A stretch of DNA of 64,000 nucleotides, taken from Lama guanicoe (taxonomy: Eukaryota). The stretch is from contig MU053352.1 of the NCBI GenBank assembly GCA_013239625.1, positions 877,079 through 941,078 on the forward strand, in the 5' to 3' direction. The notes beneath the pieces are model-generated. The model was not told the DNA's origin. It was given only the letters and a program-made list of their open reading frames with translations, and did no database searches. Each line of letters opens with the position of its first letter. Position 1 is the stretch's first letter. Below are positions 12,843 through 62,720 of this stretch, one piece after another. The position numbers were made by a program, and so were the translations under genes.

Positions 12843-13096
12843 GTTGATCATAGCATTGGATGTGATGCGGAAGAGGGTGGCCCGCTCGTTCACCGCCTTC
12901 AGCTTCTCGCTGCTCTCGTAGGGGGTCCGGAGCCCGTCCAGCTCACTCAGGGAGCGCTGCAGCGCTGCGCCGTGCTTGGCCACCAGCTCATTGCATGTGC
13001 TGAGGTCGTCCAGCTTCAGGGAGAGGTTCCGGACGGTGTCGTGTAGCTCGGTCCTGTCCGTCGGGGAGGCAGTGTCGTCGTCGTCCCCAGAGTCAT
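12843..13096 (-). CDS. OSBP2: OSBP2 coding exon (~exon 3, 254 nt)
   Basis: gtctctccacag|AT GAC ... ATC AAC|gtgagt, phase 1/0. Translates (D)DSGDDDDTASPTDRTELHDTVRNLSLKLDDLSTCNELVAKHGAALQRSLSELDGLRTPYESSEKLKAVNERATLFRITSNAMIN. Confidence 0.98.
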
Positions 13097-14597
13097 CTGT
13101 GGAGAGACACGGGGTGGCTGGGTTATCAATAACCAAAAGGTTCTGGCACCGGAGACCCGACGGCCAGGCCCAGGAGGGAGGGGTGGGCAGAGCTGCTAGG
13201 GAGATAACCAGCCTGGGTGGTGCTGCTCCAGCACCCTACTAGGGCAAGGTGGCCACCAGCCTCCTAGGGTGGGGGGTGTGGGCCCTCCTGAGTCAGTGGA
13301 GGTGATGGAGGAGGGACCAGCTGGAGCGACGGCCTGGGCTGTGCTCTGCAGGGGGCACCTGTGCCCCCACGCTGCAGTGCAGGCCGGGGTGGGCTGTCTG
13401 GGCAAAGAGGCAGAGGGTGCACCCAGAGGGTGCAGATCCCGAATGAAGCCCGGGCACCGTCCCTACATGGCAGGCCCAGCCCGGCTGATCTGACTCGTGC
13501 TTCCCCTGCCAAGCTGACCTGCTCCCCGCTCTGCGCCCACCCTTAGCCACACCAAACTGCCCCGTTCCCTGCAAACACGAGTGCTCGCGCTTGAGGCCTT
13601 TCTGTGTCCCCACTGCCTGGAGCTTCGTCACCACCTCACCTCCTCAGAGGCCTCACCCCCTACCCAGTCCAACGCCATCCTGGCTTCAAAGCCTATCTGA
13701 AGATCCCCCAGGCCACAGTCACAGCTCCCCTCCCTGCTGCTGCCCAGGGCCTCCCTCCTGCAGGTCTTCGCTTGTCTCCCCTGAGGAGCAAGGCCACACT
13801 CACCTATGGGGTCTTTGGTGTGGAGACACTGGCTGTGGCCTCTCAATGGCCTTGTCAGGGTAGGAACTGTACCATCCCCAGGGGACAGACAGGTAACGAG
13901 GCTCAGGTAGGTGAAGTCATGCCCCGGGCCACCCAGCTGGTCTGTCTGCATGCAGGGCCACCCTCTTCCTGCCAGGCTGCACTCACTAACCTCCCCACCT
14001 CACCTCCCACGCAGCCCCAGGTGCCTTGGTGCCTTTCCTGGGAGTCTGGGGTACCTTGGAGCCTGGCCTGCTGCCAGCCCAGCAACCCTGTGTCCAAAAG
14101 GGTTGCAGGGGGGCTGTGGGAGCCTCTGGGGTGCACTGCGATGAGTGGGGTGGGGTGGGCAGCCAGCCTGGGCCCTTCTGCTGCTTTGACCCAGGCCTAT
14201 CAGTGTCAGAGCCTACAACTGCCTAGGGCTTTCTGAGATGCCTTGTTTCAGAAATAACCAGGAAGAAACTTTTGTTTTGGCAAAGAAAATCTGTAACCCA
14301 GTATATAAAATTTCTGAGAAAGATACACATTGTGAGAGAATGGGCTTCTTCCCATGGCAAACAGGGTGTGTGGGGGTGGCCACAACTGAGTCATTGCTCT
14401 GCACATGCCCGGAGCTGGGGGCAGTGCCCAGCCAGCTGGCAGAGTGGAGTCCAAGCTAGGTGGGGCTGGGGGCAGGGCCTGCCCCCACCTCAACCAGCCC
14501 AAGTGCAGCCCCGAAATGACCCAGGGTCTGGAGGCCACACGTGCTGGGCCGGGCCCTGGGCCATTGGCTTGACCAGTGTCAGCGCGTAGCCTCACAG

Positions 14598-14615
14598 TGG
14601 CCAGCAGATGGCAGC
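14598..14615 (+). promoter_or_regulatory. Candidate CTCF site
   Basis: TGGCCAGCAGATGGCAGC matches the CTCF core CCASYAGRKGGCRS. Confidence 0.6.
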
Positions 14616-17441
14616 TGTTCTTCCTGCTCTCCTGGCAGGGCCACTGGTTTAGGGCAGAGCTGGATCTGAACCTGGGTGGGTCTTCCCAGAGGCTCTTCCT
14701 CTCTGGATGGCCTTAGTAATCTTGCCTTTCCGGGTGCCAAGCCCTGGGCCAGGCGCTGCCTTGGTTAATGCACGTTGACCCACTGAAGTAGGTGTGGGGG
14801 CAGAAAGATGCCTTGAAATTGCCCAGGGCCGTAGCTGGGGGAATTCTGGAGCCTCCAGGCCTGTTCAGCTTCAGAGCCTGGGCTCTTAGTGACAACATAC
14901 CCTCCTCCCACTTTCAGGGTTCCATATGTCTAGCAATCAGAATGGCCACCAACCGTGGCTATTGCTGTGCACTGGGTGGGACGCGTTGGGGCATGCTGGC
15001 CACAGGTCAGCCTGACTGTGACCCCCTGTGCACAGCCTAACTCTGACTGTCTTCCTGTGGGACGGGAGGAGGGTGGATAACCGCAACTTAGCAAGCAGCT
15101 CTTAGGGTCTGAGTTCAGGTCTAGCTGCCAGGGACACAGGAATGTGCTCTGCTCCTAAATCCCTGGCTGTTTTGTTGGGGACACAGGCCAGCGTTGCTGA
15201 CCAGCACAGTCTGTTCTGTGGGGATGGATGGAGTCCCTCCCAGAGGGACAGTGAGATCAGAATGAGGGAGGGCCTGCAAGGTGAGAGGGGTAGTGAGTAG
15301 TTGAGTGAATGGGTGAATGATCTTGGGCGCATCCCAGGAGGCCTGCACGGAGGTGGCAGGTCCCACACAGGGGGAGGGTCTAGAGAAGGACATGAGCAGT
15401 AGGGGTGGGGCACAGGGGAGCTAGCTGGAGACAGGAGAGGGCACAGCTAAGAAGCCTGGGCCTCCATCCCTTGGCAAAAAGGAGTGTGTGGGCATCTGAG
15501 CAGAGGTCCACAGAAAAGAGGAGGTGGGTGGCCGGTGGCAGGATGAGCAGACTGAAGGGACAGAGAAGCCAAGAGGTCTGACAGGGCCGTAGCTGGGAGA
15601 GCCCCAGGAAGCCAGGGGCTGGAAAGAGCAGGAGTCCTGAACCCAGTACAGGCAGGCTGACGTCAGCACCCACCCAGCTCCAAGGCCATGGACAACCAGC
15701 CACGGCCACGCTCTGGGGCCAGCTCCCAAGAATGTGGGAGGGGGAGGGGGTATCGCTCAGAAGCTGACATGTGGCCCAGCCTCCCATGTTCCCACAGCAT
15801 GTGGGGCTGTTCACACACTGAGCTTGGGGTATGAACCCCACCTCCAGCCCGGCCAGAGGCAGAGCTGAACAAAGAAGGTGACTCTGGCTCCTAAATGGTG
15901 AACTCCGGCCACACTGAGTCCCCAGTCTTGGGGTTCTCGCAAGGCGCAAACCCACACTGGAAACAGAGATGAAGCTCAACGTGAGAGATGCAGGTAAAAC
16001 CACTCAATGTGATGGTCCTCAAATCAGAAAAAAGAACGAAGGACATTCACTTGGCATGTGCTTTCCAACAGATAAGGTGGCAGGTACCCATCAAGAGCGG
16101 CCTCCCCGACATCCCCTCCCCCATGGGAGCTCTGCTGGTGGGGCACGGGGTCCAGGCAGGAACACACTTTACATGCAAAGGTTCCCAAGCTCGTAGCCTT
16201 GGGGGTTTTCTCAGGCTTTTATGACCCTGACACATCCTCTCCGTCCTAACTTCCGCTGGGAATGAAACTCAGCCACAATGAGCATGCGAGGAACAAAGTA
16301 ACAATCTGCATCTCCACGACACGGCAGACACTGAACTCTGTGTGGACGCAGCACCCTACAGAAATTCTGCAGCGGTATGAATACAAGAATAGCAGCAGCT
16401 GAAATCTAGGACCAGGTCAACGCCACACTCCGGCGTTCAAGGGAGCCCCTCGCCTGCCTCAAAGCCCCCAGGAAGGCCAGGACTCAGCACAAAGCAGCTG
16501 CCTGGGGAGGGGCTGCCAGGCTGCGCCGGGTCGGAGGGAAAAATGAGGTGGTTGGAGAACAGAGGCTTGAACTCTGAATTCCTCGTGCACTCCCCCAGGA
16601 TGCGGCCTCCTCTGCTCACACGTGCACCAGCTGCTGAAGACAGGAGCTGCTGCCCTGCCAGTCTGCTCGGGTGCCTCGCTCTCCCCTCCCCCCCCAGCAC
16701 AGGGTGCGGGTGGGTGAGGCAGGAGGGGACAGGAGACTCCCTTTACTGGGCACTGTGAGTGAGAGGCCAGTTAGGGGAGCCCAAAGCACACCCGCACCTG
16801 CCCTCTGCCTGGCGAGGATTATTCCTCCATCCTTCATGTCAAATCTCAGCCCCTGAACCCGAGGCGCGTCTCCCCCACTCTCTCTGGGACCCGCTGTCCT
16901 GCTAGCCCTGCAGGGCCCCTTGTGATCAGCTGCTCTGCCTCACGCGTGCTGGCCTCTGGCTAGCCCTGCACCAGATGGTGTGCCCAGGAGACAATGCGTG
17001 AACTGCCTGTAGACCCAGCCCAGGGTCTCAGCAGCTCGGGAAGCAAGCTCTGGAAGAGGCAGCTGCACGCTGCCCAGCAATGAAGTGGCTGGGTGGGAGC
17101 CTGTTCTCAGACATGACCACTTCTAGAAAAGCACCGACTCCTAAAATACCCGCGATTTTCCCCAGCTAAATGCAAGAATGAATTCTCCTTTTCATTAGAA
17201 GAGAATAAACCCATAAAATGTGTTTACACAGCAGCAGTCACAACTTCTCCATCTACCCCAGCCAGGTCAGCAGCAGCCTCCCGTCCATGGTGAGCTTCCC
17301 ATGTGTGTCCATTTCCAACCCTTAGGGACTATCCTGGGTTGGCTAGTGTCTCCCCAAATCCAGGCTCTTCCTGGAACCTCAGAATGTGACCTTATTTGGA
17401 AGGACTGATACAGGTATAATTAGTTAAGAAGTAGTCATCTT

Positions 17442-18066: not shown

Positions 18067-18110
18067 ATGAGGCTACCTTGGAACAGGACGAGTCCTTAAT
18101 CTAACACAAC

Positions 18111-22400: not shown

Positions 22401-24829
22401 ACTGGAGGGGGCAGGGCACAGGCCACAGGGTCAAAGCCACGAGCCACAAGGACCGGTGAAAATAAGTGTGTGCAAGTGATGGTTAGGTCGCCCACAGGCC
22501 TGGGCACCCCGCTTAGCAGAAGGCTGTGACCTGGAGCCATGCAGCATCCTCTGGATAATGGAACGCTGAGGGAGCAGGGCCCACCTCCAGGAAAAGAAAC
22601 ACCAGTGCAGAGATGGAGCATAAAAATAGAGGCGCGTGCTCCAATTACAGCATCTGCTGTAATGCTGACGGCAACCCACCACCCACAGCCTCCTCCAGCC
22701 CACCCAGAGCTTCCGCCCTAACTGGGGTTTCCACGGGGCCTACTGAAGCAACGGGGGTGCCCGTCCCGGATACAGCACTCAGGGAGCTGGCGTCCTACCC
22801 CTTGGGCCTCCAGGCTCATTCACCTGCCTGTCCTGGTTTGAGTCTTGCCCCAGGGTCCCAGGGAGCAGAGGTAGGCTGCCCCTCCGCTGCTGGAGGTAGG
22901 CCTTTGAGGACTGTTTGGGCGGAGACATGGCGGCCCAGCCCTGGTGTGAACTGACCGGGGCGGGTGCTGCTGCTCTCGCCTGAGCCCTTGTTTAAGGGGG
23001 CACAAAACAGGCAGCTGGAGCACTGACGCTCCTTTCCTCCCTGTTGGTGTCAAGACTGGGAGCCCACCCATGTCTCAGCACAGTGGGTGCCTCCCCACCG
23101 AGGCACCGGCCCCCCAGGCTGGCTGGTTTCACGAGCCCACCCCAACCAGACAAGAGTGGGCCTCCTGGGGCTGCCCTGCTCCTCCCAGCCTCCACTGAGG
23201 CCTCCACGCTGCCACCCACCCCACCAGTCTGCAGGCTCCTGGGGACCACCTGGTGACTTGGTGGTAGGGAGGGCATCAGTATTTTTAAAAAGCTCCTCCA
23301 GGAGATTTTATGCTACAGCCAGGTGAGAACTGCTGGGTTAGATCACCGGCTCTAACACCTCCTAATCCAGGCTCCAGCCCCGCACACTGCCTCAGGGCTC
23401 CCTATGTCCCCTGCACCCCAGCTCCAGGGACTAGGGAACCGAGGCTGAGGGCCTCACGTGACCCCCAGGCCTCGCTCTCTCCGGGGCCCAAGGCTGCCTC
23501 CTGGGTACCTAAGAAAAGCAAAAAAAATTCTCTTGTGATCTTGCCAGCTCAGGAAATTAAACAACTCCCATTTCTGCATTGAAAGCCAGGCTTTGCCCAC
23601 AACATGCAAGTTCGGTTTGGGTGCAGCCTTCTCACTTCTGCTCGGTAAGCCTCTCAGGTCTGCACGACTTCACTACTTGTGAGCCGCCGCCCTGGATCCC
23701 GCCGGGTTATGAGCCATGGCCTCGCCCGGCACCAGCTGCCGGGGACGTGGCGGGAACACCACAACAGGGCTCCTCTCTGCCCTCGCGGGCACGTGGGGCA
23801 CCACTGCCTGTGGCCCAGCTCGGAGCGCTGACCCCTGGCCTCGCTTCTCCGGGCCAGGCACCCCCCGCCCCGGGCCCCAACCTCGGCTGACTCGTGAGGC
23901 CAGCGAGCCCTCACCGGAGAGAAGGAGCCTTTAATGGACAACAAGGAGCTCCACCTGTGAGGGGGTTTCATTTCACTCAGCACAAACGCCTGTCTCCAGG
24001 CCAGAGAGGTCTGGCAACCCACACGCGACAGCCCGCTGATCTGTCCTTGACAGCCCAGTGCAGCTGAGCCAGTCACTGGAAACTGCGGGGTTACACAGTC
24101 TTGGCCCGAACAGCCACAGTTGCTTCCCCTTGGAAACCACTGGACGCCTGTGTAATCACACTGAAGAACTTTCTGCGTGCAGCTGCCTCGGGCGTTGATG
24201 ACAGAGTGACTGAGCAGGGGGCCTGGGGTGGGGAGAGGGGTCCCACCACCTAGGAGCCATGGGGCCCTGGAGGGGCTGGAGCTGTATCTGCACCTGGCGG
24301 ACCCCCACCTCCCAGGCCGCATGCAGGAGGTGCCAAATAGAAACCCAGTGAATGAACCAAGGACATGAGGGATGGTGGTGAGAAGAGTTTTCTGGGCTGC
24401 ATGGCATGTGCAGGTGAGTGCTGAGGGGGATCGCAGTGCTTTGAGGTTTGGAGAAGAGGTGGGGTTCACGGTTTTCCTCTGTGCAGACCCTGGCTTGAGC
24501 TAACACAGGAACACAACCTGATCACCTTGTGACCCGCCCCCCCACCAGGCCTTGGCTGCCCAATCCCTGCAAAGTTCCTCTTTCCTCCCTGCAGAGCTTG
24601 GGGCGCCCTCCTGTCTCTTATGGCTGCAGGGCCATAAGTAGGGGCCTGGCTGTGGGCTGAGCTCTGCAGGGAGGGTGAGGACGTGACCCATAGTCCCTGA
24701 CGGGTGGACTCTCATACTCCTCTTCGGGCAGACAGGCCAAGCCGTGTCTTAAACAGGAAGGGGACAGAGCCGCCCCTTTCATTAACTGTCCAAGTAAGAG
24801 ATGCCTCTCCCCTTTAGGAATCAAGCAGA

Positions 24830-27851: not shown

Positions 27852-27989
27852 GGGGAGCTCAGTGTTAAGAGTGCATGCCTAGCATGCATGAGGTCCTGGG
27901 TTCAAGTCCCAGTACCTCCATTTTCAATAAATAAATAAATAAATATATAAATAAATAAATAACCCTAATGAATCTCCTCCCCCCAAGAA
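27852..27989 (+). mobile_element. Camelid Vic-1-like tRNA-derived SINE
   Basis: agctcagtg...ctagcatgcatgaggtcctgggttcaagtcccagtacctcc, then (AAAT)n; TSD aatagctta(t/c)ta. Confidence 0.85.
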
Positions 27990-30400: not shown

Positions 30401-33400
30401 CATTGAAAATAAAGAAAGAAAGACTTTTTCTTTACTAAATTTTCTACAAAGAGCATGAATTATCTTTGAAGTCTGGAAAAATGTAAAATTATTTTAACCA
30501 CCAAATGGCAATGATTTGGGATGGCGTTCTCTGATTCCTATCTCTGGCTGTGCACCACTGCCTTCGTGGCTTTCCGACTACTTCCAGGCCTCAGTGTCCT
30601 TGTCTGCACCCTAGGGCTTGGGTAAATCATCTCCAGATCCCGCCTGGCTGTGACAGTCGGGGATTCTACGGCTGCATGACTTTCCTTTGTGTGGGTAACT
30701 GAACCCTTCTCAGCTCAATGTGAGAAAGCTTACTTACATCGACACCTTCCCCATTCAAACTCTGAAAAGTGTGGAAAAAGCCACGAGTTTAAGGCCACAT
30801 TTCCCATGACAGTAAGAGCTAAATCAAGCTGAGGGCCATTTAAGAAAGTTCCAAACTCTGTGCAGCCCATGGGGAGAAGCTCCCGGAGTGATGCTCCTGC
30901 AGCTGCCGGCCGGGCAGTCAGTCCCTGGGTCCTCGTCCACACAGACGCCACTTCCCGACAACCCATGGGATTACCTCCCTTCCTTTCATGGAGACCCATC
31001 TAGTCCGTGTGGAGCACTGCCATGTTTCAGAGCCCCCTGCAGAGTTAACACCCACCCAAGGAACCCCTGCTGTTTGGGAGGGAGCACGAGATGGTGATCA
31101 GGGAGACAGTCTGGCGTTTCCAATTAACAGTAAGGGCCACCAGCCCGCACTGATTCTCAGCAGTTATCCCAATTACCAGCTTCTCGCTACGGAAGCAGCA
31201 GTTCCTCCTAGCCCCCAGCCAGCAAGGAGAGGGCTCAGGAGGGGGAAGGCAAGAGAGAAGTGGGCGAGGCAAAGGTGAAAACTCCCATGGGAAAAATGGC
31301 ACAAAAAATTAAATATTCAGGGCAGTAAGATGCTTCCTGCTCTGCTTGGCCAAAAAGCAGAATGGCCAGCTCTCCATCGGAAAGTAGGTACAGAAATGGC
31401 TGCAGAGAAAAGGACAGCTAACTTCAAGGCTAAGGAGCCCGGGTTGGGGGGAGGTATAGGGCCAATGACTGGTAGGAGCAGGGATGCTGGTGGCCACAAG
31501 CGGCCCTACGCAGAAGCGCCCCCACCCCATGCCTGGATCTGGAACCTCTGCGTCACACAAGGGCCTGAAATCAGAAGGGTCCTGTGCTTGGTTTAATGCT
31601 CAGCTGTCTGCCACTCAAAATTTTTGAACAAGGGGCCCCACAGGTCAGGCAGCAGACCCTGCGAGGGGGTGACGGTTCCAGGGACCACTCCTCCCAATCC
31701 CACCCACTGAGGGAAGCAGAGCAGCGCTAGGGTCCCAGGAGGTCCTGTCTGGCTGGGGGTCCAGCCACGGCTGACCAAAACCAACATTTACGATACTTCC
31801 CTTTGGGTTTCCACACAAGGGCAGGAGAAGGAGACAGATGAGTAAACACAAATAATAAAGAAACGTGCAGGGTAAATTCACCCTTTTTGGTTAGTCAGTG
31901 GCAAGCTAAGAGACTAACAAGGCACAACTTTATGCTTGATCAAAAAACGCTCTCTCAGAAAAATACTAATGCAGGGGAGGTGGCCAGAAGCAGACGTCCA
32001 CACCCGGACCCGAGAGCACTGCGGACCAGAACACTTTGGCCGAGGGTGACGGGGTGCCCGGGGGAGCAGTCACACCCGTTGACTCCGCAATCACACTCCT
32101 GGGAATCTGTCCTGGAAAGAAACAGCAGAGAAAAACTGCACATGCTGGAGACACTCGGCAGCAGTTTGGTGACAATCTGAAGAGAACTGTAATGTCTAAC
32201 CGAATGTCTGGAAAGGCACCCCACAGCCATTCGGCAGGTCCACCTCAAGCCTGCGTCCAGCCACACTAAAATGGTGATGTTTGTGTATCCCAATGACGTA
32301 AAAAGGATGTTCCCATAAAGGAAACACACTGACTGAAAACAGACACCTAAAAACGGTGACATGAGGGGTAATGAAGTGATGGAAACACCATGATCTGGAA
32401 CATCTGGAATTGCTGCCTTAATAGTAAACAACCCCTAAAAATACTGCAAAATTCAGGGTGCAGAGGACAGGACCAGATGAACCTCAGAGTCTGGCCAAGA
32501 ACAAAGCGTGTGCATGTGTTGGGGGGAGGGGTGGGCTCGAGGGGTGATTTCAACAGGCAGACGAGTTGCTGCCTAATGGTTAACGAGCTAAACATCATGA
32601 TGGCGGGAGCTGCCCACCTGGACAGACTGTGCTGCTTCTGCTGTAAAAATATCCCAGGCAGAGGGCTGTGCCCAGGGGGCTTGACTGGCTGTCAGTTCTA
32701 GCCTCTCGGGGAAAAACATTTGTCCTCTAACGCTGGGTAACTCCCACCTACAGACACAAGGACTCGGAGGGCTGCCAGGTAGGGGTCCGCTCCCTGAGTC
32801 TGTGGCCTCCTCCCACCCGAGCAGCTATTTCCGAAGACGTGCGTCAGGCGTCATTAGTCAACACACACGTCAGAGGGAAACGGGACATAAAAGGAAATTT
32901 ACCTTTGGCAGTCCGGAACTTCATCTGTATTCATATTACTCATCTATTGGATCAGAGGCTGCAGCCAGTCTGGGCTGACTGGCACTTTACAGGAAGAGGG
33001 GGACTGACTGGGTCCTCAGAGGGCAGTGCTGCCTGCGGGACCCTCCCAGCTGAGTCAGGGGGAAGGGACCCAGAGCGAACCTCTCAGTCCTGGGAGGAGG
33101 GGCTCTGGGCTGCAGCCTGACCCCGGGCCGCCAGTCTCCAGCTGCCTCCCTCTCCCCATTTCGCTCCTACCCAGCTTCCCAGGGCCGCTCTCATTCTGGT
33201 TCCCACTTTGGCCTCCTCCAGGGCCCAGGCAGGGTCACCTGTCTTGGCCTGGCAACCGGGCAGCCTATTCTCTCTTTGCCTGGAGGTGACAGAGGTCACT
33301 GTGTTTCAGGAGTCAGACGTTGCTCCTGATAAATGTTAATTCTCTGCTGCCCTCAAGGCAGGGGTCACTCCTGATTGAGACCTTTTTGACTCTATGGAGG

Positions 33401-34689
33401 CCTCACAATCCAGCATAGCCCACCCCACCTCCTCCCCTTCCCTGCCTTTAGCACCCCCCCAACTGTCAGCCTGGCCCCTACTCCTGACCCCCGCCAACAC
33501 AGTGATACCCACATGCACACATTTGGTCCTCCTCGGCACCTGGGCAACCGTATGTGCTGCCCACACAGCCCACCCCTAGCTACCTGACCACCTCTCTACC
33601 CGCAGCAGCACCTTCCCTCAGAGCCCAAGGACTCTAGGGGCCTCAGACTGTGTAATATTCTCAGATCTCCTCTGCAAGGCAGATGGGGCCCCTGGGCTCT
33701 GAATTTGGCCAGCCAGGGCTGGGCCCCACCGTCCCTTCCCATTGTCCCTTCCCAGTGGGGACACAGATATGGTAGGTCAGAAGGATACTAGCTGGGCTCC
33801 AGCACACGCAGCCCCTCCAGGCTGACTCCTATCACCTGGCTGCGGACACTGGGTCCTGAGCAGCTCCTGGGCCATTTCTTAGCACAGAGTGAAAGGCTGG
33901 CTAGGTTTTCTGCTAAATGGAAAAGACAAATGCTTCTGTTTTCCCTCACCGTTTCCTGCTCTTCACTCTGACTCAGAAGCACCCAAACATTTGAAACTTC
34001 TCCCTGGCATTTAGCCTCTTTCAAATCACCACACCAGGTTCTGCCCCAGAAATTGAGCCCCAGCCCCATCCACTGTGGCCTCCACTCAGGCCAGGCTCCC
34101 CGGGGTTCCAGCAGATTCGCAGTCTACAGTGCCCGGCACTTGAATCCTTGATTCCTTACTGTTTCCCTGACACGTCACTCAGTTTCAGCCAAGCTCATTT
34201 CAGCTCTCTGCAAACAGTGCGGCTAAGCAAAGACGGAGGCTGGCTGGTGGGCACCTGAGGTTCTTTGAGGTCCCAGATGAGAAAGTGGTGACCTCAGCAG
34301 TGTCATAAGCAGGGCCACCCAAGGCCACCCAGCCCTGACCCCTGCTAAGTCTATCTTGCCAGGGTGAGGGGTTTCCTTATTTTGTGCAATGTCAGAGCTT
34401 TATGTTCCAACCAGAAAAGATGCAGAAGTCCTATACACAGCTGTGTACACACACGTACACACAGTGCTGCGCGCACACACACAAAGGCCAAGGAGTGAGT
34501 TGCCAAGGACTGAATTCAGAGGTTTTGAGAGACCCTGGAAGGGCATTTCTGCCTTTCAGGCACCGGCTCTGTCTGGAGCCCAGAGAGAGAGAGACACAGA
34601 CAAACGGGTAAACAGACCGACTGATACGCAGGTGCAGAAGTATTTCAACTTCCCGGCCTCCTTGCCAGGTAATGCGATTTAATGCCATG

Positions 34690-34950: not shown

Positions 34951-36049
34951 TGCCCCAACGCCCCAGCTACACTGCGGGACCCTGGGAGGAGCAGCCCACA
35001 TGAAGAACCTCTACAAGCCCAGACGCTGTCCTGCACTGAAATACCCATAATAAAAGCTGGAAATTAAGACCAATCTTCTAAAATCAGAAGACATAAATGG
35101 ACAAAGATCACTTGCAAGTCTCTTTAAAGGATTTCTAAGATGGAGTTGAAGTATCAGTTCCCCGTGAAATAAATTCAAAATGTATACCATTACAAACACC
35201 CTAAGATTTCAGATGGTATTTTCAGGCAAATTTGCAAGGTTAAACATGACTCCTGGACTGAGGCTTGGAGTCTATGCTGGGCTAAGGCTTTAGGAAGCCG
35301 TTAGTGTGACTAGTCAGCAGGCAAAGTTAATTACAAGGTTTATTACAGATCAGAGAATGTTAATTTCTGAAAGAAGCTGTTTCTGAAAAATTGGTGTTAA
35401 GTGAAATTAACTGCCCCTGTGTCTTTTAAGTCTACAGGGTCAAAGAATCCTATTTCCTCCCCTCCAGTTTCAAATTATAACATAAACATTCATGAAGGAA
35501 AACAAAGCAAGTTTCACTTATACAAAAATCTCCAATAGTGAAGGTTTCAAGCATCAGAAATTGCAAGGCTTTAACCTTAAGACAGCTAAGACTCCTCTCT
35601 CAGTGCTGACAAAGGGCTCTCAGGCGACTCTGCCTGCACAGCCTGGGGCTGTCATTCAGGCCTGCTGTCCCTGGGGGCAGCATCTTCAAGGCTGGGGCCT
35701 GCTCAAACCCAGGGGGCCCCTTACGTGACCTCTCTGACCTGGCACAGCTGGCTTAAAGGGCAAAGTGGAGAGGATTGGGTCATGCACCTGGGGAAGCCAG
35801 CATCACGATGGCCCCAGGAAGAAGCCCTTGCAAGCAAAGCTGCAATTCTGCCAAGGTCCCAGGGCATGCGGGCACCAAGGACTCTGGAGCAGGAGAGGTG
35901 GGTGGGTGGATTAAACAAGGCGGCCACTTCCCCTTTTTTCCAGAAAACTCTGGAGATATTTCGGTTCCACTTTGCAGAGGTTAATCAGACAGACACGTCT
36001 CTAGCCATAGCCCCCTCTCCAAAACACCCCGCAGGTAAAGCAAGTTGGG

Positions 36050-36700
36050 AGCTCACGCCGGCAAGGTACCGGGACGGGGGTTCCCCGAGGCTCCCGCGCT
36101 CCCCACTTAGCGAGCAAGTGACATCAGAGGCTCGCGTGGACTGATCATGCAGCAAGCCCGGAGTGCGCGGGGAGCCGGCCTCCGGGCGGAAGCAGGGCGG
36201 CACTAACCCTTCTTAAATTTATTCAGGCAGCCGGAGCTGCAGAAGGAGCGCACGGAGGCCGTCTCCCAGCAGCCGCGTCCCTTCATCCCCGAGGTGGGGC
36301 GGCCTCCGAGCAGCCAGGCGTTACATGGCGCCAGGCCCTGGGGGCTCGCAGGGAAGCGCGCACACCTCGGTGGGCCGCCCGGCGGAGGCGGCGGGCGCTC
36401 GCGGGTCCCGGCACTGCCGTTACCACAATGCACCACTGCCGCCCGCCCGCCGCCCAGTGCACGAGCCCGTTGAGCCCGTTAACCCCGTCGGCGCCGCGGG
36501 AGCCGGGCGCAGGGCGAGCGGTGCTGCGGCCGCCCCTTCTCCTCCCCCGGGAGCGAGGTCTCAGTCCGCACGCCGCCTGCTAGCCCATGCGACCGACCGT
36601 CCCAGGGCACCTGGCTCCCAGGGGCCAGGCAGACTCCCCATTTAAACGTTACATTCTAATGCGAAAACCCGTGCAAAGGTGCCGCCCCTGCAGCGGCAGG
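36050..36700 (-). promoter_or_regulatory. Intronic CpG island / alternative promoter
   Basis: Very high GC and CpG density; TATA-like TTTAAAT on the minus strand at about 36640-36646, upstream of the candidate exon. Confidence 0.8.
36208..36286 (-). CDS. OSBP2: Probable alternative first coding exon of OSBP2 (MKGRGCWETASVRSFCSSGCLNKFKK)
   Basis: Lies in a CpG island. gggATG at 36286, 26 codons plus 1 nt, then donor AGG|gttagt in phase 1, in frame with exon 3. Confidence 0.65.
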
Positions 36701-43150: not shown

Positions 43151-44904
43151 ATTTAGAGATTTTATCATCTTTTTTTATTTTTGAAGTATAGTCAGTTTAC
43201 AATGCTGTGTCAGTTTTAAAGATTTTACAAGCGTATGTCTCCTAACCTAAAGTCATCTCTCAACAAATTACCACTGGAAAGAGTGTGCCAGAATCAACTC
43301 CTGCTCGGGGTGAAATGTAGGGGACCCTATGGAAGACTGTCTCGTGGTGGAAGGTCAGGCACAAAGGAGGTGGATGAGGAGTGAGTTTGAGGGCAGGAGG
43401 GCCCAGAAGTCACATCAGAGAAGCCACCACATCAGTGCACACAGACCAACCTGGCAGGCAGCAATCAGAGAGGGGCCGGATCATTTGCCGCACCCGTGGC
43501 ACAATCCCCAGGAGGCGGAGGAGCAGAGCCGCCCATGGTGATGGGCCCTGCAAAGAACGGACACAGCTGCAGCAGATGCGGGGCAGGGGGCACAGGCGCC
43601 TGTCATCCGGCCGGGCAGCGGACCTCGACCCACCCGTGGCTGCCACGCTGCCACAGACCCCGGTGACCTTGAGAGTGACAGCTGTGGCTCAGGGATGAGG
43701 CCAAGCAGAGGCCACCACGTGGGTGGCCGGGCATCCACCTGTGTTCACCTCACCAGGTCTGCTCTGGGAGAGGTGTCAGGAGTGGTAGCAGAAAAGGACA
43801 GAGGATGCTGCAGGCGAGTGTGGACGGAGATGCAGGGAAGGCGAGACGTGACAGAGGCTGCTCAGAAGGGTCACCCCTGAGCGTGGCAGCCCTGTCTGAT
43901 GCCCTCCGAGGGCCCTTCCTGGGCCCCACTCACACCAACCATCCCTCTTTGAAACTCCCTGTCTCCTGGTTCTGTTACCACATGCCCACTGTCCTCCAAC
44001 CTCCTCCGTCCTGGCTCCCAGGGAGGGGTCAGTCCCACTCATGCTGGGGCCCAAGTGACAGTGTCCACACCCAGGGCTCCATGTTCTACCTCCTGGTTCA
44101 TGTCTCCCCATCTGTACCATCAGAATAGTCCTCCCCTCCAAGCTCCAGACCTCGATGTCCCCTAACTCAACTTATCCTCAACTGAGCCAGCAGCTCTCCT
44201 CTGCTCCTTCCTACAACCTTTCCCTTTCCAGACAATTCTTTCTGCCCTCCGGCACCAGGCTGGAGGGTCAGCTCCTGCGGGTCCTCCTCTCCGTGAGCCC
44301 CTACACTCGGAGTCTCCAAGTCCTGATGATGTTAAATTCAACCGAGTCTGCACACCCACACCTTCTTCTCCACCCAGGGCAGAGGTGAGCCACCCCCGGC
44401 TCACTTCCAAGGTCTCAGCTTCCTCTACCCATTCTGCCCCATCTTCCATGCCGCCAGGAAACAGTCACTAAAGGTATCATACGCTCACCTCCTTTCCCTG
44501 GTTCCCTGAAACCCACAGCAGTAATTTTAAGTTCAAACTCCTTGGCAAAACACAGTCCACTAGGAGTGAAGCCTTGTGGGCCTCAGCAACCCCCTACTCC
44601 CACTCCTGGGCTCCACCCACTTTTCTTCCCTCCTATCTGTACTGCCTTGGCTCACCTGGCCTGTGATGCCCTGCCCTACTCCCCCTCGGCTGGCTCCTGT
44701 CATCTCTGGACACTGGGCTGTGGGCCTCCTAAGGGAGCCTGATTGACTGTTGTCACCCCCGGGAGGGCTGGAAGGCTACTCAGAGGAGGGCCCTCCCTCA
44801 GGGTCCTCACCACATCTGTGCACACCTCTTGTGCACTCAACACATGAACTCACAAGCATCTTATCTACAAATGATCAGCGCCTTTAGGAACAGGAAGGGG
44901 TGGT

Positions 44905-48300: not shown

Positions 48301-49196
48301 AATACAAAGTGTTTACACAGTAGGAAAAAACTTACCTCCCAAAACAAAAGTGCTTTTGGGTGGAAAAACTGATCAAGAATAATGTAAATTGAGTCTATGT
48401 CAGCTGTGCAGTTACCATACTTTCCTCCTTATGACCTTTCCCCTCTACAGATCATTGGCCAGAAGCGAATGGTACCTGGTACCCAGTGGTCGACTTTATG
48501 CAAGCAATGCTAGCACATCCTTGGCATGCATTTCCATCAGCACTGCAGCGCTACTGCAGCTCACACTGACCCTAAAATCTGCACATCATCTCACACATCT
48601 CTTCCATCTCTCTATCATTTCACTGGCACCATCAGGCACCCGATGATCCAAGGAAGTGGTCCACCAGAGTCATTGCTGGTGCCCACAGCTTAGGCTAGAC
48701 AGACAGAACAAAACACAGACCTCAGTCCTCCAGCACAAGCCTGTGGAGATTTAGAAGCTTCATTTACATCCATCAGGTTAAAACAGGCGCCTCACTCCAG
48801 CACAGCTAGACTTCTCCATGGTCCCCCTTCCTTCCAGGCCCTCACCTCCCCAACATACCAAAAGTCCTTTGTCAAGACAGTAAAGCTCCCCTCAACAGCC
48901 CGCCCATCAGGTTTTAGGAATCAAGAGGTCTCTGTCTGACCTTGCCAGGTGATGGAGATGGGAACCGAATGGTGGTGGGATCGAAGGCAGAGGTGACCCA
49001 TCAAGTTTAAACACATCTCCCACTTCAGCTGAGGCAGGATGGGGGCAGCTTTAGGGATCGAGGAAGCCCAAGGCTCCTCTGACTGGGTAGTTACCCAGCG
49101 TGACCCCAAACTGCTTACTCAGAGGCACAGACCGGCTGGAGAAGGGCTTTTCCTGTGACAGGCACCACCGGAGTTTAAATCTCCTTTGCGTGCTGG

Positions 49197-49849: not shown

Positions 49850-50450
49850 TCACCCCAGGGAGGGGCTCCCGGGTGTGGAAGTGGGCCTGGCCCCGAGGCT
49901 GCGGGGGTTCTTCCAGTTGCCGCCGCCGCCTTCCCGTCGCCGCGCTCTCAGTCCATCTCGGTGCAGTGCTGGCTGCCACCGCCGCGCCGAGCAAGGGAGA
50001 AGGAGGGCGGTCCCCGGGTTGGGTGTATGCTGCCCAGCGGCCCGGGGCCCGCCTCTCCGCCGCGGCCGCCCCTTCAGCACCGCGGACAGCGGCCAGCCCG
50101 CGCTCTCCGAGCGCAGCCAAGCCGAGAGGAGCTGTGCGCCCCGCTCCGCCCGCCAGTCGGTCAGCCTGAGCGTGGCAGGGGCGCGGCGCGCCGCGTACTC
50201 ATTCCTCCAGCCTCTTCCTCACCAGCCTTAGGAGGCCACCTCTGCCCCGCCAGGGCTCCGCTCCAAGAGCGAAGGGCCGCCCGCGAGGCCCCCCGCCAGT
50301 CCCCGGAGGACCGGACGCACCTCCTCCAGCCCCGTCCTGAGCAGGGATTAGCTCTCAGCCCTGCAGTCTAGACAAAGGCAAGTTCTCCTGATGGGACGCG
50401 GCCGGTCAGGCGGCGGAAAGCGCAGCTCAGCCCCTTGAAATACTCGAGCT
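49850..50450 (-). promoter_or_regulatory. Intronic CpG island / alternative promoter with first-exon donor
   Basis: Very high CpG density; minus-strand donor GGG|gtgagt with exon end at 49854. Confidence 0.8.
50073..50093 (+). promoter_or_regulatory. RE1/NRSE (REST-binding element)
   Basis: TTCAGCACCGCGGACAGCGGC versus consensus TTCAGCACCnnGGACAGCGCC; both half-sites and the 2-bp spacer are intact. Confidence 0.9.
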
Positions 50451-51941
50451 TTGCCCGGAACCCAACCTGGCACTAAGGGCGCTATCTCAGTCCAATCGAG
50501 GCCAAAGAAGGCTGCCCTTCACTCAGGCCCAGAGAGGGAGGAGCCCTTGGCTCAAGCCCTCATTTCTCCACAGTCATATGCCCTGGGGTTGCAAGGAGTT
50601 AACCAATTAAGAGTCTGTTTCAGAACCCAGGGAGGGAGAGCTGTTGGGCTCCCATCCCCACCTGGAATCCACTTCCTTCCCCCACATTCTTGGTGCCAGA
50701 GCGTCAATCAACCAACAGATGGGACTGCTAGAGCCTGGTGACATCACACAGAACTGCTTCCGTGTTTTTCATTTCTGTTCAAATCCCTCCCACTGCTCCT
50801 CACCCCCAGCCAGGAAAGTCCCAGACTTAGATTGGGTGGGGGTGGGAGGGGGTGGTTCTGATTTAGCCTATGCCACAGACCGGAAACAGGAGCACCATGT
50901 GGTCACCCTCACCTCTGCCCTCAGTGAGCCTCAGCTTCTCTGGGACCTGGAGGGGGTGAGGGGGCTCCCTCTGATTCATAGTCTGAGATAACTAGGCCTG
51001 TCTGGGCAAGCAGAAAGGACTCCACAGACTGGACAGTCACTTTGGGCCCTGCCCACGTCATGGCCTCCCTCAGGCCTTTCTGCAGTCCAATGATTAGGAG
51101 ACCCTTCCCTTTACTGGGCTAAACTGGCGACTCTTGCCTAATTTGTTCTAGAGCAACAACTTCTATGCCTCATTAATTCAAGTCCAAAGATACCTTCATT
51201 TTTACCATTTGGCTGAGAACCCAGTCTGAATGGAAAACCAAATGGAATGAGCTCAAGCCGAGGTTATTAAACACTGTCCAAGCAGGCAGGAGGCACTCTG
51301 CTCAAACACTCGTGGATCGTGGTTGTTACACAGAGAGTGCGGAGCTGAGGCGTCCATGAAGGGCACGGTGGGAACAGGATCAGGCATCTGCCACTCAGGA
51401 AATGCGGCTGGCGGGGCGTGGGGTGGGGGTGGTGGTGCCTTCAGTCTTCACATCATGGAAGAAGAATCACAATCCACTCGTGATGTCTTAAATTTTAAGC
51501 AAAATCCCTACCTCCTCTACAATCTTTTTAACTTAACACCTTTTTTTTCTGAAAATATTTCCAACACTTTTGTTTTTTGTTTTGTTTTGTCTTGCTTTAA
51601 GGTAGCATACCATCAAAATCCAAAGACAAGAAACAAGTCCAGTGCCAGGAGCACCAGGTTGTGTGGGCTTCCTGCTGCAATGGTCACAAGCATCAGACGA
51701 CAGGGGTGGGGTGCCCAGCTGCCTTCCAAACACCCAGCATTTGCCAAGTGGACATGTTGACACAAGGAGAGTCTCAAGTGTTTCTTTGTGTACCTCCTCA
51801 TTTGGAATGAGTTTCTTGAGCATTTTGTGACAAATGATTCCTTCAATCTAGTTTCTTTGTTTAATTTATGGCAATATTAAGCTGTAAGTCTGCATCCTAA
51901 CCTTTAGGGAGGCCAGTGAGGGATTTGGAGAAGTCCATTTC

Positions 51942-53934: not shown

Positions 53935-54112
53935 GGGGAGAGGATATAGCTCAGTGGTAGAATATGTGTTTAGCATGCACAAGATCCTGGGTTCGAGCCC
54001 CAGTACCTCCTTTAAAAATAAATAGATAAGTAAATAAATGAACCTAATTACCTCTCACCCCCCCTAAATAAATAAATGAACGAATGAACGAATGAATGAA
54101 TGAATGAATGAA

Positions 54113-54147
<35 letters not shown>

Positions 54148-55435: not shown

Positions 55436-55509
55436 GAATATCATGCTGCAGTGTCAGAACTCCCTTCCTTTTGAAGACTGCATAATATTCCATTGTGTGG
55501 ATTTATCAT

Positions 55510-57742: not shown

Positions 57743-57808
57743 ACACACACTCATACACACACACACACATACACACACACTCACTCTCTCTCTGCCTCTC
57801 TCTCTCTC
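57743..57808. repeat. Compound (CA)n(CT)n microsatellite
   Basis: Visible imperfect runs. Confidence 0.9.
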
Positions 57809-59809
57809 CCCAAATCCAGCCCCCAAGCTGAGAACTTGAATTCTCAAGACTAACAAGGAGCCTCTGGCTTTGTTCTTTCCTGTCTCCCTCCATATCCATC
57901 ATGGGATCATGTGTGTGTGAGTAGAGGCAGCCAAAACCTCTACAAAACTGACAGTTTCAGGTTGTCAAATCTTTTCTATCCCTTCTTTCTCTCTCTCCCT
58001 TAAAAGGGGGTGGAGGTGGTCAACAGCAGTGTCACGTGGGGCTACAGATCCAAAGTCTCTCCTGACCCGGGAATGCCTGCAGGCTGAGGGTGAACTTGAG
58101 AATAAGCCCTCAAGAGGTGTCATCCAGCCATCCTCTGGCTCCAGCCCAAGGATCCCACACCCAGTGGGCCGCTGCGACAGAACCACACATCTGCCAACCC
58201 CAGGGCCTCACACCCTCCTCCTATAGCCCGATTGCTTGGAAGCAGGGAGACCGTCACCCCTGCTACCTCTGTTTCTGATGAAAGCCAGTGTCTCATGTAC
58301 GGAGAGGTGCACAAGAAACACGTGTTCGCACCGAGATTTGCATCTCTCCTACCCCCAAATAACATGGCACAAAATAAAATTAAGCTGCGTTCTAAAACAG
58401 GAACAGAGGAGGAGGCAAAGCTGTTACAGGGAAAGAATCTCAAGGAGAGAAAATTTCACTCTGCCCTGTGCTCTTGGGGCTAGAACTGAGGTCAATCCTC
58501 CTTCTGGTCCTTGAGGCTGCCTTCTGGAAGGGCTGCACCCAAGCCACCTCCAATCAAACCATTTCTCTCCCCTTAGGGTCTCCAGTGGACTCGGGAGCCC
58601 AAGCAAACACCTGTTCTATGTGGTGAATCCCCCCAGAGAGCTCTGGGTTGTCCCGGGGCTCTTTCGAGTTTTTCCCAGGATTTTTGTGTGCCCCGTAAGT
58701 TGATTTTTCTCTCTGTAAGTATCTGAGCTGAGTTGGTGGGGTCAATGGAGAGGAAACTTCATTTGCCTGTGTCAGCTCCTGGAAAGACTGGAAGACAAGA
58801 AATCTGGAAAGAACACGGGCCAGGTCATTTCTAAGGGAGGCCCATCTCACTGCCCCCAAATTCTGGCCTTTGAGTCTGCAGAGAACGTGGTCCCCCACCT
58901 GCTTGCCAGACTCAGGCCTTTGCCCTCTGGTCAAGGTTGGGCTTCTTTCAGAACCTCTCCCTGCAGTCTCCGGGATGCATCTCAGAGATGGTACAGTAAA
59001 CCCTCCAAGAGCTTCCTTTCAAGCTTAAAAATAGGGCAGCTCTTTCAAGAGGGGACAACAACCATCACTGGGAGCACAATCTTCGTGCTTCCTTTACGGC
59101 ACAGACTCTGAGACGCCAGCAGAGGTCAGGCATCCAGCTAATGGGCAGATGCCAAGCCATTTTTTTCGCCCTTTCAGGATACTGCATGAAGATTTGCCCA
59201 AAGCTATTAAAAATTAATTATTCACCCCCCTAAGAAGGCTTGAATCAAAAGTCAACATTTACAACTTATTAATTACAACATTCCCTGGCATTAGAGACTC
59301 ATTATACTGGAGCTGCAGTGCTAATCTAATTTTACATGAAAGGGGACGTGTAATTGCAGAAGCCCTGCAAGTCTGTGCCATAGCAAAGTCATTTTATGCT
59401 CCTCTTTGAGTCTGTCAAAGTTGATCACACCAAAGGCCTCGGCTGGTTTGTCAGTCACCCTGGAGCACATTCAGCCTTTGGACTGGGGGCCCCAAGTGAA
59501 AGCGATGGAATGTGGCTAAAAGCCCAGGGCCCAGCTCTGAGCACAGTGTCCACCATCCATTCTCCATGCTGCAGAGGGCTGGGGGCTTGCTACTGAAGGG
59601 TTATCCTTGCAGGAAAAGCCCCCTGCGAACTGAGTGGGATTCTGCACCTGTGCCTCAGCCATGGTCGCAGAGGGATTGACAAGATGCTGGGGAAACAGTG
59701 CATCAAAGGAGAGGGCACCACTCCTTCCCTCCCCTTTCGTCATCCGCAGGACACTTTGCAGCTGATCAAACTGTCCCCACTACCACCATCGCCACTGTAG
59801 CCTGTACTG

Positions 59810-60450
59810 GTGCCATAAGGGCCAGGCACAGTGCTGACACTTCACATATCCTCACAACAGCCCAATTCTTCAAATAAAGGAACTAGGGCTGAGGGGGGAG
59901 GGGCACTGGTTAGATCACTTGTCCCAGGTCATGTGGCTGCAAAGTGACACAGCTGGGATCCCAGTTTGTCTGGGTGCTGGTACCACAGACGCTATAAGGA
60001 ACAAACAGGACACAGAGCCCGGCTCTGCCCCTGAAGCTTTCTCAAATCCCAGTACTCTCTTCCCCACTGCCACCACCCCTGGCCAGCATTGCCTGCCACC
60101 TGGATCCACTGGCCCCTCTGCCACTGTCTGGCCTCACTCTGACATACTCTCCACCCTGTAGCCCTTAGGATCTGAGGGGAAGGCTTTTCATGATCCATGA
60201 TCTGGCCCCTGCTGGTTTCTCCAGCCTCAACTTGGGACATCCCCACCCCCCACACCCCTCCCTGCTCCTGCCACTGTGAACTGTCCTCATCTCTCCAGAC
60301 CACCAGGCTCTCCTCCACTTCTGGGCCTTGCTTTCTCCAGGCTATGTGACTCACCTTCACCAGGCTACTTCCTCCCGGCCCTGTGGGTCTCAGCTAATGC
60401 ATCACTTCCTCCAGAGAGCCTTCCTTGACTATCCAGGCTGGGTTAGGTGC
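59810..60450 (+). mobile_element. MIR (~59810-59990) and L2 (~60150-60450) fragments
   Basis: atcctcacaacagccc...cacttgtcccaggtca; catgatctggcccctgc...atcacttcctccagagagccttccttgact. Confidence 0.65.
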
Positions 60451-61560
60451 CTCTCCTTGTGCTTTCTTTGCAAGGGTGAAGCTGCAAAAATCTTCACTTG
60501 GATTTCCCTCCAGCCCAAGGTCAGAATGTTTCAACACACTTTTGGGGCATCTTACACAAAGAAACCCAGAGTCAGCATGTCTCTGGGAAGTAAGGCTCCT
60601 GGGGAGAGGTGGACGCTGGGCATACAGGCTGAGACACTCCCAAGAACCAGCCTTTCCACACCCACAACTCAAGTTGGGGTCTGAGCCCAAGGACAAATGA
60701 CCGTGTGTGAAACCACAGCACTAACCAAACACATGAATGATGGGGAGGAGGTGAGGCCCCGCTTTCCATTATTAGCACTACTTTCACTACTCTTTTCCTA
60801 TATGCATGTATTAATGAGATTTAAAAATCCCATTTTTAATATTAAAGTAAAATTGGTGCATGGTATTTATTTTTGGGTTGCTTGAAATGCAGTGATGTCA
60901 CAGAAATTAGATTCATAAATAACAAAGAGATCAAATTAAAAGGGTTTGCCAGTATTTTAGTGGCCCGGGTGCATTACAGCAGAAGGTGGAAAATGGCCGA
61001 GCCACGACGCTGTGGCATTTATCCCCATCTCACAAGCAACGGGGCTGTTACACAGTCGAGGCTGATAAAAACCCACAGGTGAGAGTTTCAGCAGCCACGC
61101 CACGCACTAGTGACTGACTCTGTCCCCAGCACCTGCTGCTGGATAATCACCTTGTCATATTCTGAGAGGAGACGGATCACTGTAGCATATTTATTGCAGA
61201 AGTGCTGGCAGTGGAATCCAGAAAAACAGTATCGGGTGAGTTGCAGTTTTTAAATAACACTAAATAAGCATGCCTTTCTGCTCGCCGAGGGCTGTGAGGC
61301 CCGTAAGGATTGAGTGCTCAGCCTGAATGATCGTTCTATTCAGGCATCTTCATTTGGTTTTAAACAGACCATACATAGATTAAGGAGTTTTGCTTCATAT
61401 TAAATGAGAATCTGACTGGCACACGTGAAATACATGTCTAAAAGGAAAAATAACGAGCCAAGGAAAACTGAAAAGCAAGAGATGAGACCGCAGGGAGGGG
61501 ATAAGCTGGATTTCGGTGCTACAGAGGAGTTGGGTACGGGTGAGAGGGAGGGAGGAGCAA

Positions 61561-61588
61561 GGGGCGGGGCCGCGAAAGGGGGCGGGGC
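61561..61588 (+). promoter_or_regulatory. Tandem GC boxes (Sp/KLF)
   Basis: GGGGCGGGGC at 61561-61570 and 61579-61588. Confidence 0.5.
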
Positions 61589-62259
61589 CAGGTAGCAAGG
61601 ATGGCCCACTGGCCCGGAAAAGAGCACCCGACCACCAAAGGGGCCACAGTTTTCCTGCCTCAGGCCCCATCACCCAAGCACGCAACTGAACCCTTCCTCT
61701 GTCCCCTCCACTCTATTGCTACTTCATTCTAGAAAGAAACTGCGTACATATTTTTAAAAACATGCTCCCTTTCTTTCTGGGCTCTCCCAGAGAAGGGCAG
61801 GATGTGGGTTCTTGTTCCTTGGAATCACATCTGTCCAGCTCCCATAGCCACAAGTGCACCCCAGGAAGTGCAGGGAGGCCCAGGCGGCTGAGGCAGGAAG
61901 GTGGCAGAGCAGCCTGGGACCACGTTTTGGAAGCATCTGTCAAATGTCTGTGGAATGCGCCAGTGGCGGGCACGGAGAGTCAGACCACCAAATTGTTATA
62001 ATCACACCCATGCGAAAAAAAGAGTTTGATCGTGTGCCCTCAATATATGAATAATTCTTTCTAGATTATACATATGGTATACTACTTCACTTCTGCTTTA
62101 CATGATCATGTGCCCTCCTGGGGGGTACTGGTCCCCTTCTTGGAAACGGTAAGGCTAGGGGACAGTGGAATCAACAGCCACAATACCATCACACCCCCTA
62201 CCCAACGCAACTTTTCTAGTAAGATATCAGAGAAGAGAGGGGAGCTACCGCACGACACA

Positions 62260-62720
62260 GTACCTGGGGCGTTAAGCTCACAACAGGCCATAACCTGAAT
62301 TTGCTTGGTGCCCAGCCAGAGGATAGCAGGGTAAGAAAACTTGGGCTGGGCTCTCCACAGGGCAGACGCAAGCATAAAAAGTGACAACCGAGGCTGCAGA
62401 GCACTCGCCGGAACACTGATGCTGTAAAGCCGGGTGAGAGGAGAGCTCCTGGAAGGTGGCTGCGACCTCCGCCGTGCGTGGGTGTGCGCGTGCGCAGTGA
62501 GAGCGGAGCCGGGATGGCAATGTCTGCAGTGTTTTCACTGCTTCTTTTATATTTCTTTTGCTATCACTGCAATATTTTAATAGCACAGGAAGTCAAGTTT
62601 AAGTGAAGAGCGGCAGGTGATTTTACTCGCCAGTTTCCTCTCCTCCGAAACACAGCATCGATTTCCTCCCACGGCTTCCCCAGCTACCAGACGGATGAGT
62701 GTGTTGGAACCAGCCCGGCT
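62260..62720 (-). promoter_or_regulatory. CpG-enriched promoter-like region with NRF1 and EGR motifs
   Basis: TGCGCGTGCGCA at 62485-62496 (NRF1-like) and GCGTGGGTG at 62476-62484 (EGR-like); minus-strand donor CAG|gtactg at 62264. Confidence 0.55.

Follow-up and report, generated by a model that had tools for sequence, protein, structure and literature searches.

A conserved alternative first exon in intron 2 of camelid OSBP2 is predicted to replace the PH domain of ORP4 with a short cysteine-bearing peptide

The minus strand of a 64,000-nucleotide stretch of the Lama guanicoe genome (assembly GCA_013239625.1, contig MU053352.1, positions 877,079 to 941,078 of the forward strand; the whole stretch is referred to below as the window) carries camelid OSBP2, the gene for ORP4, as identified by exon matches to camelid OSBP2 proteins. 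Intron 2 of this gene measures 61.2 kb, of which 50.9 kb lie inside the window; a search of the same assembly located the PH-domain exon 2 at 10.3 kb past the window end and exon 1 further up the same contig. A preliminary description of this DNA had proposed that the intron contains four alternative first exons, with donors at 62264, 49854, 36208 and 30738, which would exchange the PH domain for short cysteine-rich N-termini. This raises the question which sites in the intron can supply an N-terminus to ORP4, and what such an N-terminus would put in the place of the PH domain. We are confident that intron 2 holds a set of alternative 5' exons that can join exon 3 in phase 1, with the PH exons 1 and 2 skipped: the exon at 36286-36208 is its main member, the frames at 49016-48941 and 43484-43451 are further members, the 49854 site is at best non-coding, and the 62264 and 30738 sites are most likely products of chance.

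The predicted junction is formed by the following two exons.

12843..13096, minus strand: OSBP2 exon 3, the shared acceptor exon, phase 1, with 100% identity to P0002-P0005
36208..36286, minus strand: coding part of the conserved alternative first exon, MKGRGCWETASVRSFCSSGCLNKFKK + G, with ATG at 36286, donor G|GTTAGT and phase 1

Exon 3 (13096-12843) is directly preceded by the acceptor ...ctctccacag and translates as DSGDDDDTASPTDRTELH...ITSNAMIN, starting DSGDDDD; the four proteins to which it is identical are two partial Camelus ferus proteins and two full-length OSBP2 of 913 and 917 residues. The exon reads xAT GAC TCT GGG (D-DSGDDDD), so that one base is required from the preceding exon, i.e. 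phase 1. Full-length camelid OSBP2 reads ...MMSSHS-D-DSGDDDD across the exon 2/exon 3 junction, with the aspartate codon split as G|AT, and this bears out the phase that had been assigned to exon 3 in the preliminary description. When AAG G|GTTAGT at 36208 is joined to AT GAC at 13096, the product reads ...KK-D-DSGDD, the same as in annotated models. The frame starting at ATG 36286 comprises 26 codons and encodes the leader MKGRGCWETASVRSFCSSGCLNKFKK. In a tblastn comparison of annotated N-termini with the window, positions 36286-36209 matched at E = 1.8e-16, and P0092, P0095 and P0107 reached the highest identity, 26 of 26 residues. The exon is single copy in the genome, is not preceded by an acceptor-like tract, and lies inside the strongest CpG island of the intron (35901-36700), from which position we infer that the island is likely to be its promoter. 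A minimal upstream open reading frame (ATG-TAA, 36321-36326, minus strand) is found 40 bases ahead of the 36286 ATG, within the same island, and contains the only upstream ATG within 300 bases.

Further support for this leader was obtained from protein database searches, which were run via cluster representatives, so that a camelid-only model could be hidden; no camelid model with an MKGRGCW N-terminus was found among the proteins fetched. A search with exon 3 for longer proteins gave 1385 matches at E <= 0.001 among 1524 candidates, and the best 120 of the 1385 were examined. Among the 17 fetched matches with an Oxysterol_BP domain but no PH domain called, nine (one of them N-terminally cut) start MKGRGCW[ED]xAS[VL]RSFCSSGCLNKFKK, followed by D-DSGDD. 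A query with residues 1-40 of one such isoform yielded 22 candidates; 17 clusters passed E <= 0.001, and each of these starts with the leader. The sources named include Chrysochloris (golden mole), Tenrec, Ochotona (pika), Capricornis (serow), Propithecus (sifaka), Gracilinanus (marsupial), Anas (duck) and Anolis (lizard). PH-less models of this type are annotated as 'oxysterol-binding protein 2 isoform X2' or 'X5' in Chrysochloris asiatica, Ochotona curzoniae, Capricornis sumatraensis, Tenrec ecaudatus, Moschus berezovskii, Mirounga angustirostris, Phoca vitulina, Anolis carolinensis and Anas platyrhynchos. They resemble the form predicted from the window in the 26-residue N-terminus (up to 26/26 identical), the junction to DSGDD... 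and their length of 651-697 residues, and Oxysterol_BP is the sole Pfam domain called in them (P0092 matches PF01237 at E = 7e-139). No difference of substance separates the two, and the window holds the camelid orthologue of the exon.

The leader was aligned across 21 proteins, after exclusion of two aberrant bodies, two N-terminally cut sequences and one near-duplicate; six more sequences were found later. Fifteen of the 26 leader positions are invariant in this alignment (M1, G3, R4, G5, C6, W7, S11, R13, S14, F15, C16, S18, C20, L21 and K26) and a further six are at least 90% conserved, whereas the next 26 residues, coded by exon 3, contain eight invariant positions. Cysteines C6, C16 and C20 are present in all 29 full-length MKGRGCW sequences, and the later sequence P0199, in which K2, F24, K25 and K26 are altered, retains them. 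At the protein level, the ATG, the frame, the junction phase and the three cysteines of the 36208 candidate are conserved, and its leader matches annotated isoforms of a lizard, a bird, a marsupial and placentals. By this comparison the 36286-36208 exon is a real, conserved alternative first exon of OSBP2, present from lizards to mammals and annotated already in other species, and the MKGRGCW leader has stayed almost unchanged for more than 300 million years.

The conservation at 36.2 kb might instead belong to a promoter or CpG-island element only, with the 'isoform X2' proteins being untranslated artefacts of gene modelling. The location of the exon within a CpG island and the largely automatic origin of the supporting models would fit this explanation. 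However, lizard, duck and mammals all share the ATG, an uninterrupted frame of 26 codons and a junction in phase 1; the substitutions are few, for the most part conservative (E/D, T/S/A, V/L), and leave all cysteines in place, and the peptide is more conserved than the adjoining, certainly translated residues of exon 3. We therefore regard a promoter element without a translated product as very improbable.

Two further conserved leader exons, which the preliminary description had missed, are found in the same intron.

48941..49029, minus strand: second conserved alternative 5' exon, with a good acceptor cctcag|, ATG at 49016, MCLNLMGHLCLRSHHHSVPISITWQ + G, donor G|GTCAGA and phase 1
43451..43547, minus strand: third conserved alternative 5' exon, LGIVPRVRQMIRPLSDCCLP + G, with donor G|GTTGGT and phase 1

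The frame at 49016-48941 opens MCLNLMGHLCLRS... and bears cysteines at C2 and C10. Its leader (49016-48942) is identical to that of the 655-residue model P0106 at 22 of 25 positions (E = 3e-13), and an N-terminus of the MCLNL type also occurs in P0179 and in the squirrel UniProt fragment P0093. At the 43.5 kb exon, the segment 43511-43452 (LGIVPRVRQMIRPLSDCCLP) shares 18 of 20 residues with the leader MGIVPRVRQMIQPLSDCCLP of P0124, P0139 and P0194 (E = 1.75e-10), and ATG 43484 would give MIRPLSDCCLP (43484-43451), which carries a CC pair, as in model P0128. P0175, P0179 and P0204 present the three conserved leaders (MKGRGCW..., MCLNL... and MGIVPRMRQMIQSLSDCCLP) as separate isoforms of one gene, on one contig, in one species. 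The array of phase-1, cysteine-bearing leader exons that had been proposed for intron 2 does exist, but with different members: 36208 is the only one of the four proposed sites that belongs to it. The N-termini of the 205 proteins fetched were distributed as follows.

MKGRGCW leader: 29 full and 2 cut
PLSDCCLP leader: 5
MCLNL / MGHLCL(RS) leader: 3
start inside PH exon 2: 15
start at MINACRDF, 535-549 residues: 12
single-species leaders: about 14

Two ab initio models from Camelus ferus (P0002 and P0003) include the 43.5 kb exon (43452-43601) spliced internally, between the PH domain and exon 3. These models look mis-built, because the exon counted from its cag| acceptor has 97 bases and would shift the frame.

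Several points weigh against an array of this composition. The donor GTTAGT at 36208 scores only 2.13 on an approximate matrix, and the MCLNL N-terminus is annotated in only two clusters of 360-1147 residues and one fragment. At the 43.5 kb exon, the window has CTG where other species have their first ATG, and an out-of-frame upstream ATG (43536) overlaps the frame; because of these two features, use of this exon in the guanaco is doubtful. The proteins that support the array are mostly automatic gene models ('isoform X2', 'X5'), and their conservation was compared on protein sequences alone, by which coding and promoter constraint are not separable. That camelids use the alternative exons we infer from such comparisons.

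The preliminary description had placed three of its four sites next to CpG-rich regions, all of which exist, two of them strong and the third weak.

35901..36700, no strand: strong CpG island, the strongest, enclosing the 36286-36208 exon (GC 0.67, observed/expected ratio 0.86, 77 CpG)
49851..50500, no strand: second strong CpG island (GC 0.71, observed/expected ratio 0.79)
62301..62800, no strand: weak CpG island (GC 0.56, observed/expected ratio 0.67)

For comparison, the CpG observed/expected ratio over the whole window is 0.29, and the remaining 10.3 kb of intron 2 outside the window contain zero CpG islands. The 49851-50500 island is a possible promoter of the 49029-48941 exon. The three other sites proposed as first exons have the following features.

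49854..49956, minus strand: proposed site with ATG 49956 in phase 1, reading ATG-GAC-TGA, and a strong donor GGG|GTGAGT (score 5.06) at a CpG island edge
62264..62291, minus strand: proposed site with ATG 62291, MACCELNAP, donor G|GTACTG (score -0.05) and phase 1, at the weak CpG island
30738..30807, minus strand: proposed site with ATG 30807 (or 30999), MGNVAL...RCR, a good donor T|GTAAGT and phase 1, with no CpG island

The frequency of such sites was estimated with donor scores from an approximate weight matrix. A score of at least 2 is reached by 150 GT sites of the intron, with an ATG-open frame in phase 0, 1 and 2 at 38, 32 and 37 of them, respectively. At the score of the weakest candidate (62264), 108 of 396 donors have a phase-1 ATG-open frame, corresponding to approximately 2 per kb over the 50.9 kb of intron 2. 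Given this density, a phase-matched ATG and donor beside every CpG island is expected by chance, and the pattern carries no evidential weight alone. A rule combining CpG island, phase-matched ATG and donor picked real exons no better than chance, whereas cross-species comparison separates one true candidate and two missed exons from about 100 look-alikes.

It is hardly credible on these data that all four sites (62264, 49854, 36208 and 30738) are working first exons giving cysteine-rich, palmitoylated N-termini. Each of the four does combine a phase-1 ATG with a GT donor at the coordinate originally given, three follow CpG-rich regions, and 36208 is real; yet 108 equally phase-matched pairs occur in the same intron, and the frame at 49854 stops at its third codon, TGA. 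No ATG-open phase-1 frame reaches donor 49854, and because of the stop this site is unable to supply an N-terminus, so that its proposed role as a coding first exon has to be abandoned. It may be a real non-coding leader exon, spliced to the 49029-48941 exon, 824 bases downstream of the donor, rather than to exon 3. The 62264 site has a weak donor and a frame of only 9 codons, and the 30738 site is preceded by several upstream ATGs. When alternative N-termini from the cluster representatives searched were compared with the window, none mapped to 62291-62264 or to 30999-30738. As first exons these two sites are no better than approximately 100 chance sites, and they are most likely chance ATG-donor pairs. 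A repeat origin of the 30.7, 36.2 and 62.3 kb sites was rejected, since each is single copy in the genome. A segment at 62425-62384 was also considered as a decayed copy of the 36.2 kb peptide, on account of a protein resemblance with E = 0.49, and was dismissed as chance, given that 24% of random intron segments align as well at the DNA level.

Leaders annotated in single species were compared with the intron in the same manner, and one extended counterpart was found.

23980..24431, minus strand: counterpart of the 151-residue N-terminus of a related camelid's 780-residue model P0133, with no intact frame

The segment 24431-23980 was rejected as a leader: Ile replaces the initial Met, the reading frame is shifted and contains an in-frame stop, and CT stands where a donor would need GT. 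Species-specific leaders appear unstable, because the counterpart of the P0133 leader is broken in the window. Neither the window nor the remaining part of the intron contains a convincing counterpart of the N-termini MDTEQA, MGR, MGCAEQPCCPST, MSPLAAK... and MLPADIYLQAH of other species. The best of these matches, the segment 56785-56753 (minus strand), reads LLPTDIYLQAH and matches the P0123 leader MLPADIYLQAH at 9 of 11 positions (E = 8e-4); it has TTG for ATG and AT for the donor GT and is unusable. At 33730-33742 (minus strand), ATG-GGG-AGG-GAC followed by a donor in phase 1 would encode MGRD, which resembles the leader of P0066 (4 residues) and is too short to be distinguished from chance.

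What protein would result from the 36286-36208 exon? An internal promoter in the 35901-36700 island would drive a transcript whose first exon joins exon 3. As each alternative exon ends one base into a codon, this join would be in frame, with exons 1 and 2 skipped. The predicted product of approximately 654 residues would be without the PH domain and would retain the acidic, coiled region that exon 3 encodes, along with the FFAT motif and the lipid-binding ORD, while the short conserved peptide MKGRGCWETASVRSFCSSGCLNKFKK would take the place of the PH domain. The exons at 49016-48941 and 43484-43451 could likewise replace the PH domain with cysteine-bearing peptides. The retained FFAT motif is encoded by the following exon.

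2140..2238 (approximate), minus strand: downstream FFAT exon (EYFDAME), identified by match to camelid OSBP2 proteins

This exon lies downstream of exon 3, and its motif is retained by all PH-less forms. The camelid OSBP2 proteins of 913 and 917 residues share 90-100% identity with exon 3 and with the exons downstream of it; the exons for the ORD part in the window are 98-100% identical to camelid OSBP2, and the Oxysterol_BP domain (PF01237) is present.

Short ORP4 isoforms without a PH domain do exist, as had been stated in the preliminary description: ORP4M and ORP4S are described as truncated OSBP2 variants from alternate transcription start sites, ORP4M with a partial PH domain and ORP4S without the PH domain and the dimerization region (PMC6440634, PMC5323197). 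ORP4S was constructed as a plain N-terminal truncation of ORP4L (PMC6440634), and the reverse primers used for reverse transcription PCR lie in exon 3 for ORP4S and at the end of exon 2 for ORP4M (PMC5025801). The form predicted from the window resembles these variants in that it comes from the same gene and from an alternate start site and loses a working PH domain, and the ORP4S transcript includes exon 3 (PMC6440634, PMC5323197, PMC5025801). It differs from ORP4S in that exon 3 is retained whole and preceded by 26 additional residues, and the accessible descriptions of ORP4S and ORP4M mention no unique N-terminal peptide. ORP4M keeps part of the PH domain, like 15 'MAHTCRG...' models, which start in PH exon 2, and ORP4S, without the PH and dimerization domains, is like the twelve MINACRDF models of 535-549 residues. 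On these descriptions, the MAHTCRG... models represent ORP4M, the MINACRDF models, made from a non-coding leader, represent ORP4S, and the 654-residue leader form fits neither. With up to 3 mismatches allowed, the published human forward primers for ORP4S and ORP4M (PMC5025801) matched nowhere in the window; non-coding leaders diverge, so this comparison does not point to the camelid exon that corresponds to ORP4S.

Neither the MKGRGCW string nor the isoform class was mentioned in the literature searched; the original variant papers (Charman 2014, Wang 2002), which lie outside that search, may describe it. Searches on the alternative promoter, first exon, palmitoylation and erythroid isoforms of OSBP2 gave nothing on leader exons in intron 2. 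PH-less variants from internal promoters are also known for other ORP proteins, namely ORP1S and ORP9S, in which the ORD is left with or without the FFAT motif; to our knowledge, neither has been described as gaining a conserved cysteine-bearing leader peptide. As public annotation already contains the alternative-exon array and ORP4 variants without a PH domain have been published, the array is not new as a kind. Sperm development requires ORP4, and some proliferating and leukaemic cells depend on it to survive (PMC5025801). Studies of the protein have focused on ORP4L and the plain truncations ORP4M and ORP4S. Should the leader serve as a targeting or regulatory module, it would have gone unnoticed in experiments with simple truncations. 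This unstudied and highly conserved peptide offers a fair lead for the cell biology of ORP4.

Functions can be proposed for the leader peptides from sequence features. A tentative possibility is that the conserved cysteines of MKGRGCWETASVRSFCSSGCLNKFKK are S-acylated and, together with flanking basic residues, form a membrane anchor that replaces targeting by the PH domain. S-acylation commonly takes place at clustered cysteines that have basic residues nearby. The three cysteines occur in all 29 full sequences, and the peptide has six Lys/Arg and one Glu, with C6, C16 and C20 placed among K2, R4, R13, K23, K25 and K26 (a sequence feature only); the other two conserved leaders are also cysteine-bearing (CC; C2 and C10). 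However, Gly2 for myristoylation is missing, the ten invariant non-cysteine positions (G3, R4, G5, W7, S11, R13, S14, F15, S18 and L21) exceed what a simple lipid anchor usually needs, and the 'MKGRGCW' string is absent from the literature searched.

It is rather unlikely that the peptide is a small metal- or protein-binding knuckle, related to the latter half of a zinc finger of the FCS/MYM type (TRASH clan), although several matches point this way. The isolated 26-residue peptide matches Pfam zf-FCS (PF06467) at E = 0.0045, with residues 11-24 on positions 26-39 of the 39-position profile, YHS of the same clan matches at E = 0.044, and 17 of 21 orthologues match zf-FCS at E <= 1. The likeness consists of F-C-S-x2-C-x3-F at peptide residues 15-24, which is the second half of the motif, and F15, C16, C20 and F24 are invariant or nearly so. 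The FCS zinc-finger consensus has been published as CX2CX14-30FCSX2C (PMC4047054). Of this consensus, the second knuckle FCSX2C is present (F15-C16-S17-S18-G19-C20), whereas the CX2C first knuckle is absent and the only upstream cysteine, C6, lies 9 residues from C16, too short for the spacer of 14-30. The score of 17.2 bits is under the curated cut-off of 22.4, the unrelated family Flu_B_NS1 matches as many members at similar E-values, and lizard, marsupial and duck have H or N instead of the serine of FCS (S17). A PDB search with the 26-residue peptide gave no match and one with a 10-sequence profile gave no zinc-finger chain, its only match being an irrelevant designed repeat protein (E = 0.71); in the ESM Atlas, nothing usable matched residues 1-30 of P0092. 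Whether lipid- or metal-dependent, the peptide might act as an autonomous targeting module; together with the two other cysteine-bearing leader exons, promoter choice could then conceivably send the VAP-binding, lipid-transferring body of ORP4 to different membranes or partners.

The ten longest open reading frames of the intron had no Pfam match, and nested genes in intron 2 were ruled out for these ten. In the same genome (contig C7465:1942530-1945255), the equivalent intron of the paralogue OSBP, which separates its PH exon from its DSGDD-type exon, spans only approximately 2.2 kb, compared with 61.2 kb in OSBP2; because it is this short, the leader-exon array is specific to OSBP2. Two matches to the transfer RNA model at 27852-27920 and 53940-54011 (plus strand), scoring 43.5 and 42 bits in AT-rich stretches of intron 2, are probably short interspersed elements derived from transfer RNA rather than genes.

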